A stretch of 35,897 nucleotides of DNA from a virus (Duplodnaviria > Heunggongvirae > Uroviricota > Caudoviricetes): the IMG/VR virus record IMGVR_UViG_2675903675_000001, positions 64,001 to 99,897 of that record. One strand, written 5' to 3'. How positions within the stretch are numbered: the stretch's first letter is position 1; each line of letters begins with the position of its first letter. The position numbers and the translations under genes were made by a program. This document shows, in pieces, positions 2 to 21,568 of the stretch. The notes beneath the pieces were generated by a model, which was not told where the DNA came from, searched no databases, and was given only the letters and a program-made list of their open reading frames with translations.

Positions 2-3000
2 CCTTATGAAGCCGCAGATAACGTTGCTTCTAAAACAGTTGCCTCTATTTTAGATCTTCTCGGTGAAGGCGTTATAGGTGGTCTAAAGAACGGTGAAAAG
101 TCTATCTTTCTAGATGACGTCCCTGTTCAAAACCCTGACGGTTCAATGAATTTCAAGGGAGTGAAAACGTGGGAACGTAAAGGTCACCAAAATCAATCCC
201 CAATTGACGGGTTTGATGACATTGAAACACCAAGAAACGTAGCTGCGGAGTTACGTAAAGATTCGCCTAAAACGCTGTCCATTGATAACGACGACACTAA
301 CCGTTTAAGAGTTATCATGGAGTTTCCACGCTTGTCATCAACCGACAAAAGCAGTGGTGATATTAACGGCGCATCCGTTCAGTTTGAATTCGCACTTGCT
401 GTTGGTGCCGACAATTTCAAACCTATTGCCCCTGTTGGCTTTAGCTCGTCAGTAGTCACGGTTTCAAAGAAGTCTAGCGGTAAGTTTCAATACGAATACT
501 TAATTGATTTACCCACTGGAACAAAAAATCGTCGCGTTCGAGTTTCTCGTGTTACCGCCGATTCAAGCAATGATTACCTTCAAAACAAGACGATCGTAGC
601 CTCTTATGGTGAGATTGTCTTTGCTAAAATGTCATATCCAAACAGCGCACTTGTGGGGATCACGATAGACTCAAGAGAATTTGGCGGTAATTTACCACGC
701 CGCTCTTATTTGGTCGGCGGTATCTTAATTCGAGTACCGTCAAATTATGACCCTGTGAGCAATGAGTATAAAGGCGATTGGGATGGTAGTTTTGAATACC
801 GATCATCATCAAATCCTGCTTGGATTCTCTACGACCTATTAATCGAAAAACGATATGGTTTAGGGAGCTATATTAGTGAGTCGATGATTGACGTTGGTAA
901 GATTTATCAAATCGGTCGATACTGCGATCAATACGTGCCAGACGGCTTCGGTGGGATGGAAAAGCGTTTTACCATCAACACTGTGATTGCAACTCGTCAA
1001 GAAGCGTTTAAGGTCATTAATGACATTGCTTCGGTTTTCCGTGGCATGGTGTTTTGGGCTGGTGGGATGATCAATCTTCGCCAAGACAGCCCTTCAAGCC
1101 CTGTTATGCAGTTTTCTGCTGCCAATATTATTGACAAAATTACTCGCAAAGGCTCAGCACGTAAAGACCGCCCTACCGTAGCGCTGATTACCTACAATGA
1201 TAAAGACGACCTGTACAAGCAAAACGTTGAGTATGTCGAAGATGAAGATGCTAAGAAAGAACACGGCATCCGAAAAATCGAATCTCTGGCATTTGGCTGT
1301 ACTAGCCGCGGTCAGGCGAATCGCGTCGGTTTATGGATTCTGTATACGTCTAAAATGGAAACGGACGTTGTTATCTTCAAGGCGGGTATAGACAGCTCTT
1401 TGTTGATGCCGGGTGATTTGGTCAAGGTTCAAGATAAATACCGCTCTGGTAAACGAAACTCGGGTCGTGTCGTTTCTTGTACCAAAAATAGCATTACGTT
1501 AGATTCGTCGGTTAATTTGGCGAACCAAGGCGCTTTCATCACCTTCTTAACGCCAGAAGGTAAAATGGTTGATCGCGATTTACTTCAAGCCGCTGGAAAC
1601 CACACAACCGTCACCTTCAAAAGTGCAATCAAAGATGATGAAATGCCTGTGTCACTTGGTCTTTGGACAATTACCGAGCCTGATTTAGAACCTTCGTTAA
1701 TGCGTGTGATTAGCGTAAAAGATGAGGGGAAAGGCGTTTATGAAATTATGGGCGTTGACCACAATCCATCTAAGTTTGCGGCTATCGATCAGGGCGCGGT
1801 TTTAACACCATCCAAAACAACCGTTTTAGATCCAACTTACAAAAAGCCTGAAAATATTCAAATTGAAGAAGCTACTTACATTTCTTCACCAGGCAACCTG
1901 TCAGTTAAGTTATTAGTTTCTTGGGACGGCTTCTCGCCTTTCTATGCGATCCGTTATCGGCGCAGTGATATTATCGATAACTGGCGTCAACTCCAATTAA
2001 CAGATAGCCAATATGAAATCCTGAGCGTCCCTGACAAGTCTTCATACGACATCGAAGTCTTTGCACTATCTGTCACTGGAAAGCGAACAGAATCTATTTC
2101 ACGCACATACAAGACCGTCGGAACAATGACACCGCCAGATGCCCCTAAGAATCTAGTGGCGGTGGGGGATTATCGCCAAAATATTATTACGTGGATCAAC
2201 CCATCTTCTATCGACTTAGAGGCGGTAAATGTTTATGGATCGAAAACAAATAAAATCGAGACGGCGACTTTGCTGGCAAAAGTGCCATCCACGGTCTTTA
2301 ACCACTCCGGTTTGGAAGATGACGCAACATGGTTCTATTGGGTCAGAGCAGTTAACAAAAGAGGTATGCTGAGTCCTGCTAACTCTAATCTCGGCACAAA
2401 AGCGACAACGAAAGAAGTTATGTCGTTTTTGAAAAATAAAATCACTGAAACTGAATTAAGTAAAGATCTGCTGGCTGATATAAACGACAACGCATCAGAT
2501 GCAGCGGCGGAAAAAGTCACCGCAGCCGTTGAAGTCAAAGTTGGCGAAATTAAAAAAGCTGTTGATGAAAGCAAAGCCGCGTCTGATAAGGCTGTTTTAG
2601 ATGTAACTAAAAATGCACTATCAATTGATAAAGAAATTGCAGAAAGAAAGGCGGCAATTAAAACGCTATCCGACGCTGCTGTGTCAGAAAGCCAGAAGCG
2701 AGCAGAGGCTATTAAAAAAGAATCTGATGCTAGAGTCGCTGATATAAAAAAAGAAGCGACTTCTCGCAGTAATGCTTTAAAAGAGGAGTCTCGGTTAAGG
2801 GAAGAATCTTTAAAGGCGGAATCTAATGCTCGTAATACAGCAATACTGAATGAGAAAACTGAGCGAGGCGCGGCTATTACCGCAAGTGAGAAAAAATCAC
2901 AAACGGCAACCGATGCTTTGGCAACAAAAGTCAACCGCCTATCTACCGCAACCGACGCTAACTCAGCCGCAATCAAGAAAGAAGAGCAGGCTAGAATTAC

Positions 3001-6000
3001 CGCAGATTCATCAGAAGCGGTCGAAAGACAGTCTTTAGCTTCGCAAATGAGAGGTGACTATACTGGAAAGGACTTAACAAAAGTCACGGCTGGTTTGGTA
3101 TTTGAGGAGCGTGAAGCGAGAACATCCGGTGATAAAGCAGAGGCGTCAGCTAGACAGTCACTAGAAACTCGATTAGGTGAAAGTGTAACGGCCGTTAATA
3201 AGTCAATTGAGTCAATAAGCACATCCCAAAAAGCACAAAGTGGTGAAATTACAGCAATTAACACTTCGCTAAAAAACAAAGCGGAGTCTAGCGCAGTTAA
3301 TTCGCTTAACTCAAAAATTGAAGAGCAGGGTAAAAGACTAACTTCTCAAGGATCGGCAGTAACAAAGTTACAGAACGACCTAGGTTTGACTAACACTAGC
3401 GTAGGTAAAAAAGCCGACAGCTCAGCTTTAACCGCTTTGGATAGTAAAGTTACCCAGCAGGGTAAGGATATTAGCTCACAAAGCGGCAGTATCACGGCTC
3501 TGCAAAATAGCTTAAAAACTACCAATGCTAATGTTGAAAAAAAAGCCGATAGTTCAGCTCTAAGTATATTGGACAATAAAGTCATCCAGCAAGGGAAAGA
3601 TATATCATCAACAAGTAACAAAACCACTGCTCTTGAGAATAGTTTAAAAACGACTAATGCAAATATTACCAAAAAAGCCGATAGCTCAGCTTTAACCGGT
3701 TTGGATAGTAAGGTTGTTCAGCAAGGAAAGGATATTTCTTCGGTTAGTGGTAGCGTGACAGATCTTAAATCAGTTCTAAATCCTAGAAGCGCCTTTGTTG
3801 TAACTGCCGCTTGTCATCGCTCTGCATCAAATATGAATTCAACATTAACCAATGAAAAAGGCAAGGTGTTGGTTGGGGGTGGTCGAAGCTTCGCATTAGT
3901 GACTTTCAAAAGAGAGAATGACGGCTCCACATCAGTAGATTTTAGTAAGGTTTACGACATTTATGCAAAACCAGAAGACGGAAAGGCTCTTGTAGAGGAT
4001 GTTAAGAAATTACCTTACGGTACTAGCGCTTGTATTTTCACTAATGACGACCCTAGTCAAAATCGTGAAACAATTACTGAGGCTATTGAAATGCTTGGCG
4101 GTACGAAAGAGGCGATCGCCAAAATCCCTCATCGCGGTGCTTATATTTTAGTAGGTTTTGTCGGTTTAAATAAAGGTGATGCTATTGAATTGTCTGCGAC
4201 TAAAGGCGGAAACAAAAATTCTTTTGTTAAAACGTCAATAGAGTTCATTGATGGGACACTTGTGGGGCTGGGATCGTCGGCTGGTGCTATAGATATATCA
4301 AACGCTAATGCCTCAGCTATTACGAAATTAGACAACGAAGTTAAATCTATAGGTGGAAAAGTAACATCTCAGTCCACGCAAATGAGTAAACTTCAAAACG
4401 ATCTTGGTACAACAAACCTCAATGTGAGCAAAAAAGCCGAATCAACGGCATTAAGCTCTCTTGACAGTAAAGTTACCCAGCAGGGTAAAGATATTTCGTC
4501 AGTTAGTGGTAAAACTACGGCTCTTGAGAATAGTTTAAAGACGACTAATGCAAATATCGGCAAGAAGGCCGATAGTTCGGCTTTAACGGCTTTGGATAGT
4601 AAAGTTACCCAACAGGGGAAAGACGTAAGCTCAGCTAATAGCAGTATAACGCGCCTGTCAAATACACTTAAAGATATGTCTGTAGGTGGTGTTAATCTTT
4701 TTTCCGAGAGTGATAGTGAATTAGGGACAGTCCAAGAGTCGATCAATGTAGGTTCAGCTTATTCGGCTGTTAAATATCCGGGAGACAACCGAGTAAGAAA
4801 TAAAACTCTAATTGATAGCGGCAAAGGTATTGTCATCAGTATAAATGCTGATTATGAGTATTTTGTGACTTGTTTTGATAAGTCGTCTAAATATCTAGGC
4901 TCAGGGAGATCGTTTTCTTGGAGAAAAGATTTACTTGTTATACCTCCCTTTTTAGGTTTTGTGGGTGTTGTTGTTCGTCGTTCTGACGGGGCTAAAATGT
5001 CCTTACTCGATGTTGTTAAGTCAAGAATAAAGGTAGAAATTGGCAATGTTAGAACAGATTGGTCTCCATCGCCTTTCGACATCGCTTCTGTTAATGATGT
5101 GTCAAATATTAAGTTGGCTAATAGCAAGGTTATATCTGGCTTGGATAGCAAGGTTACACAGCAAGGAAAAGATATTTCGTCAGTTAGTGGTAAAACTACG
5201 GCTCTTGAGAATAGTTTAAAAGTCACAAACAACAATGTAGGAAAAAAAGCAGATGCCGCAGCTTTAAATTCACTAAACAGCACAGTGGATAAACAAGGTA
5301 AAGATATAACGTCTCATGGAAAAAGTATTACCGCTCTTGATAATTCAACCTCTTCGATTAAAAGTGGTTTGGATGATACAGAAATTCTAGCTAGGATCAC
5401 CACCAATGGTAAACAAATAATCCCTGTACCTAACTTTAATGAAGGTAAAAATGATGTCTATCTTTATAACAACGCTAATAACGGAAATATTAGTATTGAT
5501 GTTATAGGTAGAAGATCTACTAATCCAACGACTTCAAGTCATGAAATCGCTATGACAGTGAAAGGTATTGCAGCGCCTAACTATGGCGGTTTTAGAAGAG
5601 AGGTTCATTCTAAACCAAACGCTGTTTTTGTGACAAAGTATATTATCAAATTGCCTTTAGGCTGGGCTTTGCAAGCAAACACAAACCCTCTAGGTGACGG
5701 ATATATTGACAAATTTGTTGGCAATAGAGAAGGTACTGGTAAATACGAAACCTACTATCGCGTCACTAAATGTGGTGAAGTTGGGAAATTTCAAACTTTT
5801 GGTTATGTGAGCGTCTATATTTCTGATAGCAGCAAAGCCAAAGCACCTACTTCTGCCTCCCCCATGACTTGGTATTTAGCGCAGATTGAAGTTTATGAAA
5901 CAACCGACTATGCTTCGGCAACACCGGAAGTTACTGATTTTATGTCTTCTGCTAAAACCTCATTAGACAGCTTAACCAATGCAACAAAATCACAATCATC

Positions 6001-8311
6001 TCAGTTAACTAATTTGCAAAACAGCCTTAATACGACCAATACTAACGTAGGAAAGAAAGCTGAATCATCGGCGTTGAGTGCTTTAGATAGTAAAGTTACT
6101 CAGCAGGGTAAAGATATTTCATCTGCAAACAGCAGTATCACATCGTTGAAATCATCGATTTTACCTCGCACTGTATTTTTGCTGAAATCGGCTGGAGCTG
6201 GGTCTGGCATTATAGGGAAAATAACAAATGATAAGGGTGTTGTGATAGCAACGGCGGAAAGAAGTTACTGCTTGATTGTTTTTAAATTAAACAACGATGG
6301 GTCTACTGTAGTTGAATCAACAAAAAATTACGATGTGTTCGCTAATAAAGACATGGGGGTTGCTTTATCCAAAGATGTGGCTGCTTTAGGTAACGGAAAA
6401 TATGCAGCTCTTATTACACATGATGAGCCTACTAGGAATAGAGAATCAATATTGCCTGCTGTTGAGCGTCTTGGGGGAACTAAGGAAACTCTATATTCGT
6501 TTCCGCATAGAGGCGCTTATATTCTTGCGGGCCGAGTTGGGGCTAATAAAGGTGATTCAATAGAGTTGGCTTCCAGAACGGGAAACGACAAATCCGCAAT
6601 GGTTCAGACATCCATTGAGTTTGTTAATGGCGTATTGATGAATCACGGTAACGGTGGAGGTATTGCTATTTTAGCATCAACCAATGCCAATGCTATATCA
6701 AAATTAAATACAGACACCAAAGCGACTGACGGCAGAGTTTCATCCCAATCTACGCAAATAACTAAACTTCAAAATGATTTAAATGCCACAAATTCAAATG
6801 TAAGTAAAAAAGCTGAATCATCGGCGTTGAGTGCTTTAGATAGTAAAGTTACTCAGCAGGGTAAAAATATTGATTCCGTAAGTAGTAAAACTACTTCTTT
6901 GGAGAATGGGTTAAAGACTACAAATACAAATGTTGGAAAGAAAGCGGACACATCGGCATTAAACACTTTAAGTTCAAAAGTTACTGATGTTGAAGGTAAG
7001 GTAAAATCAGCGGCTTCAAGCGTCACGGCGTTGTCGAGCAAAATAGATCAAGTTAAAAATGATTTAACTGATTTAATTGAGGTTGATCTGGACTTATCTA
7101 AATTAGATGAAAATACCTACTATCCGGTTACTTTGAATTTAAACATTACAACGCGTTATTACTTCAAAGTGTTTAGAACGCTGGGTCAATTCTCAAATAA
7201 CAAACCTAGTTATGCGACTCATGGCAGTAAAACCTTTGCAACTATTCTTGAGTGGAGTGTTAGCGGTGAAGGTTGGGGGACTCAAAATATAAATAGAATT
7301 ATACATAATTTTGGTTTTAGATTCGTAAACCAATCACCAGTGCTAGGCCCCGAGCAGCTAGCAAACAGTTCGACTGAGTATGTTTATTTGAGAGGTGGGT
7401 CGTTCTACAAGTTAACTAAGCCTAAAAACTGCGCTCACTATATAAGAACAACAAAATATACGACAGACAAACAAAGTGTAGGTCCAATACCTTACACTGC
7501 AAATAAAGTACCTGTTTCAGTAGGGAAAGCGACCTCAGATGCCTTGTCCGACTTGTCAACTAAGATAAGCGCCGTTGATGGAAAGTTAACCTCAACAGCA
7601 AATGATGTAACTAGATTGAAAACTACCATTGGAACCAAAGCCGACTCCAGTGCGTTGAACTCACTTAGCAGCACCGTGACTCAACAGGGTAAAGATATTA
7701 CAGCTCAATCAACGTCTTTAAGCCAGTTAACCACGAAAGTAAACGGGCAGGGATCAACAATATCAACGTTGAATAAAACTGTTACGGACTCTAACAAGTC
7801 ACAAGCAGAGACGAATAAAACCATAGAGAGTAAATTCAACGGCTACACTGCTAGAATAAATCAGGTAGAGAAAACTGTCGCAAGCGGAGGTGGTCTTAAC
7901 TCTACTTGGATGGTTAAGATGGAAGTTAGAGCTGACGGCAAGAAATACGCATCAGGCATAGGTCTTGGTGTTGACGGGAAGACGCTGCAAAGCCAATTCT
8001 TGGTTCAGGCTGATAGATTTGCATTGATGAACACAGCCAACGGTAAAGTGACTACTCCATTCGTTATCGACGGTGGTGTAACTTACATCAACGCGGCATC
8101 AATCAAAGATGGGTCTATCGGAAGTGCTAAAGTCGGTGATTTACAATCCAACAACTACGCGGCAGGTAAAACAGGTTGGAAGTTTGGCAAAAACGGTATA
8201 CTTGAGATGAACGGCCAAACTTCAGGACAGGGTAGATTGTCGATTTCAAACAACAGGATAGATGTTTACGACGAAAAAGGCGTTTTACGTGTTCGATTAG
8301 GTTTATTATAA
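2..8311 (+). CDS. Giant tail-tip/host-specificity protein (lambda gpJ-like central tail fibre), 5'-truncated by the window edge
   Basis: The frame is open from base 2 (PYEAADNVASKTVASILDLLGEGVIGG..., a J-like N-terminus), so ATG146 is not the true start. J motifs SNPAWILYDLL, YGLG, YCDQYVPDGFGGMEKRF, GCTSRGQANRVGLW; FN3-like repeats; coiled coil; DUF1983-like C-terminal region (SQFLVQADRFA...TPFVIDGGVTYIN). Confidence 0.93.
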   Translation, partial: PYEAADNVASKTVASILDLLGEGVIGGLKNGEKSIFLDDVPVQNPDGSMNFKGVKTWERKGHQNQSPIDGFDDIETPRNVAAELRKDSPKTLSIDNDDTNRLRVIMEFPRLSSTDKSSGDINGASVQFEFALAVGADNFKPIAPVGFSSSVVTVSKKSSGKFQYEYLIDLPTGTKNRRVRVSRVTADSSNDYLQNKTIVASYGEIVFAKMSYPNSALVGITIDSREFGGNLPRRSYLVGGILIRVPSNYDPVSNEYKGDWDGSFEYRSSSNPAWILYDLLIEKRYGLGSYISESMIDVGKIYQIGRYCDQYVPDGFGGMEKRFTINTVIATRQEAFKVINDIASVFRGMVFWAGGMINLRQDSPSSPVMQFSAANIIDKITRKGSARKDRPTVALITYNDKDDLYKQNVEYVEDEDAKKEHGIRKIESLAFGCTSRGQANRVGLWILYTSKMETDVVIFKAGIDSSLLMPGDLVKVQDKYRSGKRNSGRVVSCTKNSITLDSSVNLANQGAFITFLTPEGKMVDRDLLQAAGNHTTVTFKSAIKDDEMPVSLGLWTITEPDLEPSLMRVISVKDEGKGVYEIMGVDHNPSKFAAIDQGAVLTPSKTTVLDPTYKKPENIQIEEATYISSPGNLSVKLLVSWDGFSPFYAIRYRRSDIIDNWRQLQLTDSQYEILSVPDKSSYDIEVFALSVTGKRTESISRTYKTVGTMTPPDAPKNLVAVGDYRQNIITWINPSSIDLEAVNVYGSKTNKIETATLLAKVPSTVFNHSGLEDDATWFYWVRAVNKRGMLSPANSNLGTKATTKEVMSFLKNKITETELSKDLLADINDNASDAAAEKVTAAVEVKVGEIKKAVDESKAASDKAVLDVTKNALSIDKEIAERKAAIKTLSDAAVSESQKRAEAIKKESDARVADIKKEATSRSNALKEESRLREESLKAESNARNTAILNEKTERGAAITASEKKSQTATDALATKVNRLSTATDANSAAIKKEEQARITADSSEAVERQSLASQMRGDYTGKDLTKVTAGLVFEEREARTSGDKAEASARQSLETRLGESVTAVNKSIESISTSQKAQSGEITAINTSLKNKAESSAVNSLNSKIEEQGKRLTSQGSAVTKLQNDLGLTNTSVGKKADSSALTALDSKVTQQGKDISSQSGSITALQNSLKTTNANVEKKADSSALSILDNKVIQQGKDISSTSNKTTALENSLKTTNANITKKADSSALTGLDSKVVQQGKDISSVSGSVTDLKSVLNPRSAFVVTAACHRSASNMNSTLTNEKGKVLVGGGRSFALVTFKRENDGSTSVDFSKVYDIYAKPEDGKALVEDVKKLPYGTSACIFTNDDPSQNRETITEAIEMLGGTKEAIAKIPHRGAYILVGFVGLNKGDAIELSATKGGNKNSFVKTSIEFIDGTLVGLGSSAGAIDISNANASAITKLDNEVKSIGGKVTSQSTQMSKLQNDLGTTNLNVSKKAESTALSSLDSKVTQQGKDISSVSGKTTALENSLKTTNANIGKKADSSALTALDSKVTQQGKDVSSANSSITRLSNTLKDMSVGGVNLFSESDSELGTVQESINVGSAYSAVKYPGDNRVRNKTLIDSGKGIVISINADYEYFVTCFDKSSKYLGSGRSFSWRKDLLVIPPFLGFVGVVVRRSDGAKMSLLDVVKSRIKVEIGNVRTDWSPSPFDIASVNDVSNIKLANSKVISGLDSKVTQQGKDISSVSGKTTALENSLKVTNNNVGKKADAAALNSLNSTVDKQGKDITSHGKSITALDNSTSSIKSGLDDTEILARITTNGKQIIPVPNFNEGKNDVYLYNNANNGNISIDVIGRRSTNPTTSSHEIAMTVKGIAAPNYGGFRREVHSKPNAVFVTKYIIKLPLGWALQANTNPLGDGYIDKFVGNREGTGKYETYYRVTKCGEVGKFQTFGYVSVYISDSSKAKAPTSASPMTWYLAQIEVYETTDYASATPEVTDFMSSAKTSLDSLTNATKSQSSQLTNLQNSLNTTNTNVGKKAESSALSALDSKVTQQGKDISSANSSITSLKSSILPRTVFLLKSAGAGSGIIGKITNDKGVVIATAERSYCLIVFKLNNDGSTVVESTKNYDVFANKDMGVALSKDVAALGNGKYAALITHDEPTRNRESILPAVERLGGTKETLYSFPHRGAYILAGRVGANKGDSIELASRTGNDKSAMVQTSIEFVNGVLMNHGNGGGIAILASTNANAISKLNTDTKATDGRVSSQSTQITKLQNDLNATNSNVSKKAESSALSALDSKVTQQGKNIDSVSSKTTSLENGLKTTNTNVGKKADTSALNTLSSKVTDVEGKVKSAASSVTALSSKIDQVKNDLTDLIEVDLDLSKLDENTYYPVTLNLNITTRYYFKVFRTLGQFSNNKPSYATHGSKTFATILEWSVSGEGWGTQNINRIIHNFGFRFVNQSPVLGPEQLANSSTEYVYLRGGSFYKLTKPKNCAHYIRTTKYTTDKQSVGPIPYTANKVPVSVGKATSDALSDLSTKISAVDGKLTSTANDVTRLKTTIGTKADSSALNSLSSTVTQQGKDITAQSTSLSQLTTKVNGQGSTISTLNKTVTDSNKSQAETNKTIESKFNGYTARINQVEKTVASGGGLNSTWMVKMEVRADGKKYASGIGLGVDGKTLQSQFLVQADRFALMNTANGKVTTPFVIDGGVTYINAASIKDGSIGSAKVGDLQSNNYAAGKTGWKFGKNGILEMNGQTSGQGRLSISNNRIDVYDEKGVLRVRLGLL
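4487..5220 (+). repeat. 53-bp exact direct repeat (4487-4539 and 5168-5220)
   Basis: aaagatatttcgtcagttagtggtaaaactacggctcttgagaatagtttaaa occurs twice; offset 681 bp = 227 codons. Confidence 0.9.
6056..6865 (+). repeat. 57-bp exact direct repeat (6056-6112 and 6809-6865)
   Basis: aaagctgaatcatcggcgttgagtgctttagatagtaaagttactcagcagggtaaa occurs twice; offset 753 bp = 251 codons. Confidence 0.9.
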
Positions 8312-8329
8312 TAGGTATCTAATTACTTA
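8312..8329 (+). promoter_or_regulatory. Operator-like motif TAGGTA-tctaat-TACTTA upstream of the lysis genes
   Basis: 12/12 match to a quasi-palindromic motif recurring upstream of many genes in this window. Confidence 0.7.
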
Positions 8330-8387
8330 GTATGTTAAATGTGATATAAAATTCCCACCCCGATTTGCCTAACACATGGAGGTTAAT

Positions 8388-8714
8388 ATGGCTAACGAGG
8401 TGGGGGAAGTCACATCTGAGATGATAGAAAGAATCGTTAAGCAAACAGCTAAGGAAGTTGTATCTAGTTTGCAAAACGATATCCGCGAACAGATTACCGA
8501 AGAGGTTAGTCGAGGTCTGAAATCGCATTTCGGAGATATGACACCAACGCAACACAGCGTCCAACACGCGAATATTGAGAAGCTGTTGACCCGTCTTGAC
8601 AACCTCTCAAGTGGGTTTTATGGCGGAATCGTCTCAAAGATCGCATCGACGTTGATTACTGTTTTAATCCTCGGTCTAGCGGCATGGGGTTTGAAAAGTG
8701 GAATCGGAAGCTAA
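8388..8714 (+). CDS. Holin-like membrane protein (single C-terminal TM segment)
   Basis: GGAGGT RBS before ATG8388; hydrophobic C-terminus IASTLITVLILGLAAWGL; lies directly upstream of the muralytic gene. Holin function is inferred from position only. Confidence 0.6.
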   Translation: MANEVGEVTSEMIERIVKQTAKEVVSSLQNDIREQITEEVSRGLKSHFGDMTPTQHSVQHANIEKLLTRLDNLSSGFYGGIVSKIASTLITVLILGLAAWGLKSGIGS

Positions 8715-8725
8715 GGAGAGCAACG

Positions 8726-9424
8726 ATGACAGAGAAAAAAGTACCTAAAGGCGTAAGACTGAATAACCCGGGCAACCTAGAAATGGGTTCGCCTTGGCAG
8801 GGCTTAACCAAACAACCTCAAGATAATCGCTTTTGTAGTTTTAAAGATCCCACATTTGGGATTCGCGCAATTGCTGTCACGCTAATTACTTACCACGACA
8901 AGCGAAAAGCAAAAGACGGTTCGCGAATTGACACGGTACGCGAAGTTATTGAGCGATGGGCACCTTCGGTTGAGAATCATACGGAAAACTACATCAAAGT
9001 AGTTTGTCGAGCTATGGGAGTCCTCCCCGACCAAAACATCGATCTTCACAAATACCACCTTATTCGACCTCTCGTTGAAGCCATCATTTTTCAAGAAAAT
9101 GGCAGAGGCGATAAGAAGAATATTAATACCTGGTATAGCGCCGATGTTATTGACGAAGGCTTGCGTCGAGCTGGTGTCGTCAAGCCAACAAAAGAAGTCG
9201 GAAAAATCCCTGTTACGAAAGAAACAGCAAGCGCCACCATCGCCGCATCTTTAGGTATGGGGCAGATCGCAGAAGTTATGCCTCAAGTCTCCGACGCGTT
9301 GATCAAATCAGAAGGTCATTTATCCAGCGGCTCGATTGTTCGTATTGTTTTTGGTGTAGCTACTATTGCGGTGGCTTGCGTTATTGCTTACGCCCAAATC
9401 AAGCGTTATCAGCGAGGTTGTTAA
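8726..9424 (+). CDS. Lysozyme-like muralytic enzyme (NNPGN/RWAP family) with a hydrophobic C-terminal tail; probable endolysin
   Basis: AAGGAG RBS before ATG8726; motifs GVRLNNPGNL, FGIRAI, IERWAPSVENHTENYI, AIIFQENG; C-terminal hydrophobic IVRIVFGVATIAVACVIAYA. Confidence 0.8.
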   Translation: MTEKKVPKGVRLNNPGNLEMGSPWQGLTKQPQDNRFCSFKDPTFGIRAIAVTLITYHDKRKAKDGSRIDTVREVIERWAPSVENHTENYIKVVCRAMGVLPDQNIDLHKYHLIRPLVEAIIFQENGRGDKKNINTWYSADVIDEGLRRAGVVKPTKEVGKIPVTKETASATIAASLGMGQIAEVMPQVSDALIKSEGHLSSGSIVRIVFGVATIAVACVIAYAQIKRYQRGC

Positions 9425-9523
9425 TTAAATCGCCTGACGAAACAATAGCTTATCAAAGGTTCATCTAAGTCAACCTGTGTTTTAGTGATAATGTTAAGCT
9501 TCATTAATATATGGAATGAAAAG

Positions 9524-9793
9524 ATGAAAAAAATATTACCCTTCGCTTGTTTTTTTGTTTTGGTTGGATGCACCTCTATCCATGAAAAATCCATTCAGGA
9601 TATTGATTGTATTGGTGTTTATACATTGGGTAGTTTCCCTTATCAGCAAAAAGTTAAGCTGAAGTTATCACAAAAACACACTGACAAATTAGGTAGAGTT
9701 ACCTATAAAGCTGGTTCAAATTTAGGTGTCCGTTTTATTGGGCGTGGGATAATTAAAGAGACAGAGATCAAAATATTACATTGTAATAAATGA
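9524..9793 (+). CDS. Cor-like outer-membrane lipoprotein (superinfection-exclusion candidate)
   Basis: MKKILPFACFFVLVG|C lipobox; second Cys 13 aa later, a YKAG motif and a terminal Cys. This matches the size and Cys pattern of Cor lipoproteins of phi80/N15/T1-type phages. Confidence 0.6.
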   Translation: MKKILPFACFFVLVGCTSIHEKSIQDIDCIGVYTLGSFPYQQKVKLKLSQKHTDKLGRVTYKAGSNLGVRFIGRGIIKETEIKILHCNK

Positions 9794-9798
9794 GTCAT

Positions 9799-9830
9799 GA
9801 AGAATGACCTGTTCCAACAGGTCATTCTTC
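9799..9830. terminator. Perfect 15-bp inverted repeat gaagaatgacctgtt-cc-aacaggtcattcttc
   Basis: Seen directly. No U-tract; abuts the TAAGGAG RBS of the next gene, so a terminator role is uncertain. Confidence 0.45.
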
Positions 9831-9842
9831 TAAGGAGTTATC

Positions 9843-10094
9843 TTGAGTTTTGGGCTAGGTATTTTTGAAAATGGTAAAAACGTTGCTACGTATTTTGATA
9901 AGTATGTAATTGATGTCGTTGATATGAAAGGCTCGGGAAAAAAAATATACAACCCACCTGACGGAACTAAAATTACTCTTGTTTCCTTGTATGGTGTTCA
10001 CGATGCCACAAAGGTAAAGATAGAAAAAAATATTTTATCGTGGAATTTGAAACATTATTTTGCTGTTTATTGTGTGATTTTGGAAAAATTATGA
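9843..10094 (+). CDS. Small tail-tip-associated protein (type normally found after gpJ)
   Basis: TAAGGAG RBS, TTG start, N-terminal MSFGLGIFENG motif typical of small genes following J; ATGA overlap with the next ORF. Confidence 0.55.
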   Translation: MSFGLGIFENGKNVATYFDKYVIDVVDMKGSGKKIYNPPDGTKITLVSLYGVHDATKVKIEKNILSWNLKHYFAVYCVILEKL

Positions 10095-10747
10095 AATCGG
10101 GATTTGATTTTTTTTCAGGCAATGGGAAAAGTTTATTTCCTTATACTGAAACATCTTATGTCTTCTACAAGAAGATTGCTCTAAACAAAAATACATTATT
10201 AAACAATAGATTATTTGATAGCGGTATTCCTAAAGCGTCTAATGCGCTTTTTTTTATTAACTGCGATGAGATAAACATCAGTAAGTCATTTTTTAATCAT
10301 GCGCTAAACGACTCTGGTAAAAATTATATGTTTGAGATAAGTGGCGATTTGGACAAAGCCGTTAACTTATTTTTATATGTGTTTGTTACTTCAAAATTTC
10401 ATCAACAAAATACCCCCACATCAAAATGGGGGATTCAATTATTTGATGAGAAAGGTGAATTACATCATGTGTCAGGGCAGATACCGTTGGCATTATATTC
10501 AGCTAAAATTTCAGGAGTGAATTTTAGCTTAAAAGAAAGTTTTAAATTAGCAACATTAGTAAAAATGTATGGATTTTATTCTATGACTTCTTTTTTTTAT
10601 GGCTGGGTCAGGATTGGAGTATCTGCAATAGGAGTGAAAGATAAGGCCTTGTTCGCGAAAGATGTTATCGGCGCTGGAACGGCGCCTATGAGTTCTTCTC
10701 AGTTTGATACGACTTTAATCTATATTAATTGCAGTTTATATGATTAG
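10091..10747 (+). CDS. Putative receptor-binding/tail-tip accessory protein
   Basis: Start ATG10091 is coupled to the upstream stop; N-terminal MKSGFDFFSGNG and internal KWGIQLFDEKGEL motif; AT-rich. Confidence 0.55.
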   Translation: MKSGFDFFSGNGKSLFPYTETSYVFYKKIALNKNTLLNNRLFDSGIPKASNALFFINCDEINISKSFFNHALNDSGKNYMFEISGDLDKAVNLFLYVFVTSKFHQQNTPTSKWGIQLFDEKGELHHVSGQIPLALYSAKISGVNFSLKESFKLATLVKMYGFYSMTSFFYGWVRIGVSAIGVKDKALFAKDVIGAGTAPMSSSQFDTTLIYINCSLYD

Positions 10748-20571: not shown

Positions 20572-20606
20572 TAGGTATTTACATACTTATATAAATCATT
20601 TATATT
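20572..20606 (+). promoter_or_regulatory. Operator TAGGTA-tttaca-TACTTA enclosing the -35 of a TTTACA-17-TATATT promoter
   Basis: 12/12 motif; -35 at 20578-20583, -10 at 20601-20606. Confidence 0.75.
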
Positions 20607-20612
20607 CAGTTC

Positions 20613-20827
20613 CATCCTCCTTGGTTAATTACAATGTAAAGGGTTGTGCGCGTTTGTCGGAGTGGTTAAACGCTCAACCTTAAAGTTAAACACAGTGAGA
20701 GACGACTCACCACCGTCTCAATCTGTTACGCGGTAACTGATTTTTCGCTGAAATTGGTTACTCGGTAGCAGAGCTACAGTGCCCTTAAATGTCGTACCAA
20801 TAAAGAGCCTAACGGCTCTTTATTTTT
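20613..20827 (+). ncRNA. Candidate ~215-nt structured non-coding RNA
   Basis: Bounded by a promoter and an intrinsic terminator; no plus-strand ORF in the track; hairpins at 20642-20679, 20692-20726, 20733-20761 and 20765-20777. Confidence 0.5.
20799..20827 (+). terminator. Intrinsic terminator aataaagagcc-taac-ggctctttatt-ttt
   Basis: Perfect 11-bp stem with T-tract. Confidence 0.8.
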
Positions 20828-20846
20828 ATCATGAGAAAGGTGAACA

Positions 20847-21059
20847 GTGAGAAGAAGAAGTTTTATCAAGTCATTATCTTTACTGGCTTTTGCCCCTATT
20901 ACAGTAAATGCCGCGGTAAAAGAATCCCAAACGCCTAAACCAGAAAATAAAAACGCTGATATTACGGGCAATTCAGAATGCTCAATGAATTTCGATAGTA
21001 AAGGCTTGCGTGTTTACGATGAACGCGGAAATCTTAGAATACAGTTTGGCGAGCTATGA
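20847..21059 (+). CDS. Small protein with twin-arginine (Tat)-like signal peptide and gpJ-like C-terminal motif
   Basis: AAAGGTG RBS, GTG start; MRRRSFIKSLSLLAFAPITVNA|A; ends VYDERGNLRIQFGEL; ATGA-coupled to the next ORF. Confidence 0.65.
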   Translation: MRRRSFIKSLSLLAFAPITVNAAVKESQTPKPENKNADITGNSECSMNFDSKGLRVYDERGNLRIQFGEL

Positions 21060-21568
21060 ACGGTAAAGATATGATTAGTTGGGGTGATAGTGTTTCTAGA
21101 CATACGGATGTTATGTCACCTAACGCACGTCGATACTACAATGAACAGTATGTAGCTAATTTCAATCGTCACGTAAGAGAAGGTGAATCCATAGCCAAAA
21201 AATTACTAATGAATGTCAGAACTATCGATGGTCGAATGAATAAACGACATCTTACTGTGGGGATTAAGGTTGCTAAGATAGTCGGCGGCTGTCGGGGTGG
21301 TGGAAAAATAAAACTAACCTCTGATGTTCTTTCTCATTTTATTGAACGTGAAGAAGTTGCCTTTTGTGTCAGCGATTTTCCAAGACACTACCAAGAATCT
21401 TTTGATCATAGGTTTAATAGCGTAGATATCAAAACAAGTCGATATAGATTAGTTGAGTGTTTTAGTGAAATGTTTGGCAGAAAGATTTGTTGTTATTTTC
21501 TCGTTGAAACATCTATTGATTGGCTATATAGCAATGCAATTGTACAAAATAGGCTTTCGTTGTCTTAA
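21056..21568 (+). CDS. Hypothetical protein
   Basis: 170-aa ORF translationally coupled to the upstream gene. Confidence 0.6.
   Translation: MNGKDMISWGDSVSRHTDVMSPNARRYYNEQYVANFNRHVREGESIAKKLLMNVRTIDGRMNKRHLTVGIKVAKIVGGCRGGGKIKLTSDVLSHFIEREEVAFCVSDFPRHYQESFDHRFNSVDIKTSRYRLVECFSEMFGRKICCYFLVETSIDWLYSNAIVQNRLSLS

Follow-up and report, generated by a model that had tools for sequence, protein, structure and literature searches.

A small gene of an SSU5-type phage-plasmid was found to encode a 70-residue protein in which a predicted twin-arginine (Tat) signal precedes a C-terminus that profile searches identify as a homologue of the three-strand terminus conserved among J fibres of the phi80/T1/DEV type. 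The best explanation, still tentative, is that this miniprotein is a Tat-targeted mimic of the J tip, which would bind the partners of the tip (adaptor or receptor-binding protein, RBP) and carry them into the envelope. The gene lies in a stretch of 35,897 nucleotides, hereafter called the window, which is part of a complete virus record of 99.9 kb. Features are given in Table 1 by their position in the window.

Table 1. Position of the miniprotein gene, its surroundings and the tail-tip genes in the window.
Feature	Position	Strand	Basis or remark
70-aa miniprotein gene, GTG start	20847..21059	+	ORF behind a purine-rich RBS; relatives correspond to hypothetical protein WP_241543950
Tat-like signal peptide (residues 1-22); a predicted signal peptidase I site follows A22	20847..20912	+	sequence and motif rule
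Variable low-confidence linker	20913..20978	+	in-frame insertions (12 nt or longer) occur here
Beta-meander of three strands, homologue of the terminal turn in J-type fibres	20979..21056	+	profiles and AlphaFold
Palindrome TAAGTA-N6-TACTTA with one mismatch; a sigma70-like promoter overlaps it	20572..20606	+	kept in Providencia
Structured non-coding leader	20607..20830	+	ends in an intrinsic-terminator-like hairpin; partly conserved in Providencia
170-aa gene, no family	21056..21568	+	overlaps the miniprotein stop; travels with the miniprotein in Morganellaceae-type elements
End of J (PF09327-type tail-tip fibre), module putatively mimicked	8231..8311	+	Pfam PF09327 match in J
Cor-like lipoprotein	9485-9793	+	phrog_1119; candidate partner cassette 9485..10747
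Adaptor	9843-10094	+	phrog_557; candidate partner
Receptor-binding protein	10091-10747	+	phrog_425; candidate partner

The miniprotein gene and its host element

Gene order and near-identical proteins identified the window as an SSU5-type phage-plasmid that differs little from plasmids of Moellerella; compared with those of Moellerella wisconsensis, the ligase is 99.5% and the integrase 100% identical. Its tail tip is of the phi80/N15 type, with a full J-adaptor-RBP-Cor cassette whose counterparts are phi80 genes 21-24, genes 22-24 together corresponding to the set of Cor, adaptor and RBP. J (146-8311) exceeds 2700 residues and contains several internal repeats and inserted domains, its true start being located about 58 bases upstream of the window. 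The lysis genes (8376-9424) split J from the adaptor/RBP cassette, in which cor lies 5' of the two other genes, an order that differs from that of phi80. In relatives, transposon cargo with class 1 integron-like resistance genes or arsenic resistance was observed as insertions near the helicase-primase genes (L014:1-6785, L002:5681-14689).

The ORF, its RBS and its twin-arginine-like start are as described in an earlier sequence-only reading, and the distance of 12 kb from the tail genes given there corresponds to 12.5 kb from J. The N-terminus M-R-R-R-S-F-I-K is a twin-arginine motif in which I replaces L (RRSFIK at residues 3-8). It is followed by an uncharged stretch of 16 residues and a V-N-A site at positions 20-22. 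The h-region is short, with a best 12-residue hydropathy of 1.9. Within the first 35 residues, RRxF[LIV]K occurs in a single one of the 346 ORFs of at least 50 residues in the 99.9-kb genome, which is the miniprotein. The elements of the Tat-substrate sequence rule (twin-arginine motif, charged n-region, hydrophobic h-region) were all found, and the motif is invariant across the family. The window protein gave no match to TIGR01409 or PF10518 at E<=1.

No Pfam match was obtained, the PF09327 domain and the long shaft being absent from these 70 residues, and no Pfam, NCBIfam or PHROG family covers the whole protein. It has no lipobox, its sole cysteine being C45, and phrog_1119 matches the Cor-like gene, not this ORF. 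AlphaFold predicted strands at residues 46-50, 53-57 and 63-67 with pLDDT values of 82-85. Fold searches with this model returned nothing at E<=0.001, and all ESM Atlas leads were below 0.9.

Four Moellerella-type alleles differ by seven synonymous versus three nonsynonymous changes in their shared parts and all their length differences are in frame; therefore, the ORF is considered as a real gene. The Providencia PROV236 plasmid carries a syntenic orthologue of 78 residues, also in the interval between ligase and integrase, where a remote homologue of the 170-aa gene follows it. It is 31% identical to the miniprotein; the invariant positions cluster in the twin-arginine and terminal motifs, and both RRxFxK and D-x-x-G-x-x-R-I-x-x-G are retained. 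Conservation of the ORF and retention of the J-end motif in homologues, both asked for in the sequence-only reading, were thus borne out by a distant orthologue and a purifying signal.

Close homology is narrow (three clusters), and the copy in plasmid Drgb1 is decayed or mis-sequenced. Eight further SSU5-type intervals lack such a gene and harbour other cargo instead, for example phoH, tRNA and YafO genes, suggesting that it is optional cargo; HEPN and colicin-like genes were also found in this interval in related elements. In the same interval of Cronobacter and Enterobacter phage-plasmids, unannotated leaderless ORFs of 69-70 residues were observed (L008:15419-15628, L117:4001-4213); they lack a signal, and their J-like end is weaker (E=0.04-0.07). 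No miniprotein was detected in 251 + 401 GTDB genomes by a search whose first pass missed the known Providencia gene, a result that does not indicate absence.

Relationship to the end of J

The last 15 residues of the miniprotein and of J are identical at nine positions, in register with the stop codon, which confirms the match originally noticed. It scores 47 with BLOSUM62, and the runner-up among the 3909 frame ends of the genome scores 25. A profile built from J C-termini only (n=16, collected with J as query) and run against all six frames of the genome ranked the miniprotein second behind J (E=0.0012). In the reverse direction, a profile of miniproteins only returned J ends as top matches in 251 genomes (best E=1e-5). 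When longer proteins were sought with a profile, J proteins alone were retrieved. A second J-only profile gave E=3e-9; this value is partly circular, some of its J ends having been retrieved by the miniprotein profile, and E=0.0012 is preferred. Profiles and alignment agree on the presence of the J terminal motif at the stop codon, and the homologous part comprises about the last 25 residues with three predicted strands. Weak tblastn matches in P1-like E. coli plasmids were discarded as out-of-frame chance matches. P0053-57 (50% library) were set aside as unrelated repeats of fibres that align with the middle of the miniprotein.

At the DNA level, 26 of 48 nucleotides are identical and six of the nine shared residues are specified by different codons, suggesting that the copy is old. 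Between Moellerella and Providencia, the J ends are identical at 21 of 22 positions, whereas the miniproteins share 6 of 22; the expected co-variation with the cognate J was thus not observed. The own J ranks tenth by similarity to the miniprotein among 37 J ends, a set in which the top ranks include ends selected by the miniprotein profile. By these comparisons the miniprotein does not track its own J. Of the initial idea that it copies the end of its own J, the homology stands, but over about 25 residues, as an old event and not with the own J specifically. The related motif reported in the RBP gene is present; however, it was not scored by the J profiles and corresponds to an internal hairpin of the phi80 gp23-type family.

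Twin-arginine ORFs with J-like ends in viral contigs

Viral contigs were scanned with two DNA patterns covering the terminal motif and stop only, the N-terminus being unused. At least 211 stop-anchored matches were obtained; among the matches listed, 186 belong to long frames, 15 are cut by locus ends and 10 are short closed frames, of which seven are twin-arginine ORFs (L166, L130/L221, L184, L227, L302, L138). In comparison, 0.24% of the short frames in the scanned loci begin with an RRxFL-type start, which argues for a recurring family. The seven ORFs have 75-89 residues and an RRxFL start followed by an alanine-rich stretch; two of them are interrupted or shortened. Among the matches listed they form about four lineages, with 62-65% GC where measured. 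Residues M1, R3, R4, F6, D58, G61, L63, R64 and G68 are common to the window protein and the aligned members. Among the aligned members, TIGR01409 matches three of seven weakly (best E=0.036) and TIGR02811 matches two (E=3e-4). The neighbours of distant members were named by reading and not by HMM; one member lies in a tail operon, and three have lysis genes on one side and terminase genes on the other, all being co-oriented.

The three remaining short closed frames resemble J fragments, and L149 and L274 were rejected as family members for being such fragments. DNA patterns combining the Tat and terminal motifs were rejected, as their matches in metagenomes were Tat substrates of the usual kind and those in viral contigs were few. 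Leaderless ORFs of 45-60 residues with a J-end-like motif were observed next to J genes of other phages (L301:4516-4659, L168:8155-8310, L292:5784-6059).

The sequence-only reading had also considered a captured 3' end of J fused to a Tat leader. As a mere recent fragment this is unlikely since the fusion recurs, and a function-less fragment behind a chance arginine-rich start is very improbable. The narrow close homology, the decayed Drgb1 copy and the interrupted copies in viral contigs would fit such a fragment, but the purifying signal, the in-frame indels and the retention of both modules at 31% identity do not, and the fusion is found in several distant lineages, far above background. 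A further scenario is recruitment of the J-end meander to pair strands, as a generic module, with a host envelope protein, for instance to tune lysis or receptor assembly, any link to the tail having been lost. Fast divergence from J, the adjacent lysis genes of several members and the generic nature of three-strand meanders, for which fold searches gave no specific match, are consistent with it. It is nevertheless unlikely: the J-end invariants (D, G, R, G) and the stop register are kept in all members, suggesting a J-like interaction.

Expression, proposed function and known systems

The palindrome upstream of the gene has 15 copies in the genome versus 0.8 in shuffled sequences, 14 of them intergenic, at positions 8312, 17437 and 20572 of the window and at 12 further places of the genome. 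Copies stand ahead of J, of the lysis cassette and of a major-tail-like gene, and the palindrome is a candidate late-promoter or operator element of this phage-plasmid group. Besides a repressor site, a late-activator site as in P1 offers an alternative model, and either would mark a lytic regulon. Since tail and lysis genes share the element, expression would be lytic and not lysogenic; late timing is only suggested, as non-structural genes also lie behind copies of it. A terminator-like hairpin (20799-20824) is located directly 5' of the miniprotein RBS, with a similar one in Providencia, so that expression would need read-through. No tRNA (ARAGORN) and no Rfam match were found in the leader; its first loop is tRNA-like, and the corresponding interval of related elements contains genuine tRNAs (Asn, Ser, Tyr, Thr), so that the leader is possibly the relic of a tRNA or else an RNA with a regulatory role. 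The downstream 170-aa gene is 22% identical in Providencia and broken in Drgb1, and its AlphaFold model has a pLDDT of 34.

These features bear on superinfection exclusion, in which a periplasmic peptide made by the lysogen would stop the entry of phages with such a tip. The predicted export signal, the sigma70-like promoter and the cargo interval, elsewhere home to colicin-like, HEPN and YafO genes, are in line with it. However, the promoter element is common to lytic genes, homologues are co-oriented within late operons, the element already possesses a Cor gene and the miniprotein has no lipobox. On the model of lambda and T5, the tip of the adsorbed virion probably remains outside the outer membrane, where a mimic in the periplasm might not encounter it. 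Exclusion is thus distinctly unlikely; of the exported decoy or exclusion factor first proposed, what holds is a conserved gene keeping both motifs, while exclusion itself is weakened by the lytic promoter element and the late-operon homologues.

[quoted passage not shown] As the C-terminal end of J meets adaptor and RBP, the mimicked segment would be the docking end. The Tat-targeted J-tip mimic, in which a Tat signal is joined to a stand-alone version of the fibre's last turn, would be made in lytic growth; its three-strand end would fold or trimerise in the cytoplasm like the J tip and bind the ligands of the tip, either adaptor and RBP or J chains. The Tat signal would then tether the complex to the membrane or move it to the periplasm as a hitchhiker. 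Tat transports folded proteins and complexes (PMC13673990), and it would not be needed for a 48-residue peptide alone. A bait binding tip partners in the cytoplasm is, with due caution, the simplest account of both conserved modules. The phage could benefit by depriving a co-infecting competitor of parts of its tip, as suggested by the fact that the miniprotein does not track its own J, or else by delivering spare RBP that blocks the receptors on the lysing cell. Several observations stand against this mechanism: the signal of the window protein is below a TIGR01409/PF10518 match and has a short h-region, the terminator-like hairpin separates promoter and gene, and the palindrome also precedes non-structural genes. 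In addition, the leaderless Cronobacter and Enterobacter relatives suggest that export is dispensable in some versions, and about 25 tip residues are perhaps too few to trimerise.

The main rival to the mimic that removes tip partners is a decoy against J-targeting defences. The miniprotein would show an epitope of the J end to Tai-like or Bil-like host systems by which the central tail fibre is sensed or attacked, and in the phage's own lytic cycle these systems would be dragged out of the cytoplasm or onto the membrane. Escape mutations from Tai lie in the C-terminal region of J, and in the late operon of phi80 the counter-defence gene ati follows the genes for lysis (PMC11364771), the slot in which three distant members also lie; the patchy accessory distribution and the existence of leaderless cytoplasmic variants fit as well. 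A decoy would however be expected to resemble the own J, from which the miniprotein drifts, and it has no similarity to phi80 Ati; this explanation is considered unlikely. Tai and Ati of phi80 (PMC11364771) share with the miniprotein, putatively, the action of a small accessory gene on the C-terminal region of J, and several family members the late-operon place after lysis genes. TaiEcA and AtiEcA, compared by eye, show no sequence likeness to it; both lack an export signal, and neither mimics J. The genes tai and ati are divergent, whereas the miniprotein and its neighbour are co-oriented. A stretch of TaiEcA (L005:44365-44979) resembles, by eye, the hairpin motif of J-docking adaptor/RBP proteins and could be a means by which Tai engages J.

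With J-type fibres the miniprotein shares the homologous terminal motif in stop register; it differs in comprising only the last 25 residues or so, without PF09327 or shaft, in its predicted export signal, its remote position and its lack of co-variation with the own J. Cor (phi80, N15, T1) and T5 Llp are likewise small exported phage envelope proteins, export being predicted here, but these receptor-blocking lipoproteins act by binding the receptor and have their genes next to the receptor-binding gene, and the window has a separate Cor. As in class I Tat substrates, for which hitchhiker co-export is known (PMC13673990), the twin-arginine motif lies at the n/h border and a signal peptidase I-type site follows; unlike them, the miniprotein is phage-encoded and its predicted export would concern a passenger of about 48 residues derived from a virion protein. 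By sequence, it falls outside J, Cor/Llp and Tai/Ati and within the Tat-substrate rule. No description of such a protein was found in the open literature searched and no library family matched, in agreement with the initial statement that no system of this form is described. The architecture is new as judged from these comparisons, and the mechanism is the one we infer from it.

Lambdoid, T1-like, SSU5-like and N4-like phages all rely on the J-adaptor-RBP tip, against which tail-assembly defences discovered recently are directed. It is possible, though doubtful, that the miniproteins represent an undescribed widespread family combining a docking-end bait with a Tat conveyor, by which tail-tip or anti-tail defence proteins would leave the cytoplasm in competition or counter-defence. 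The genes are small and often unannotated. If true, a recurring exported mimic of the docking end would constitute a new phage accessory function and a rare phage-encoded Tat substrate.
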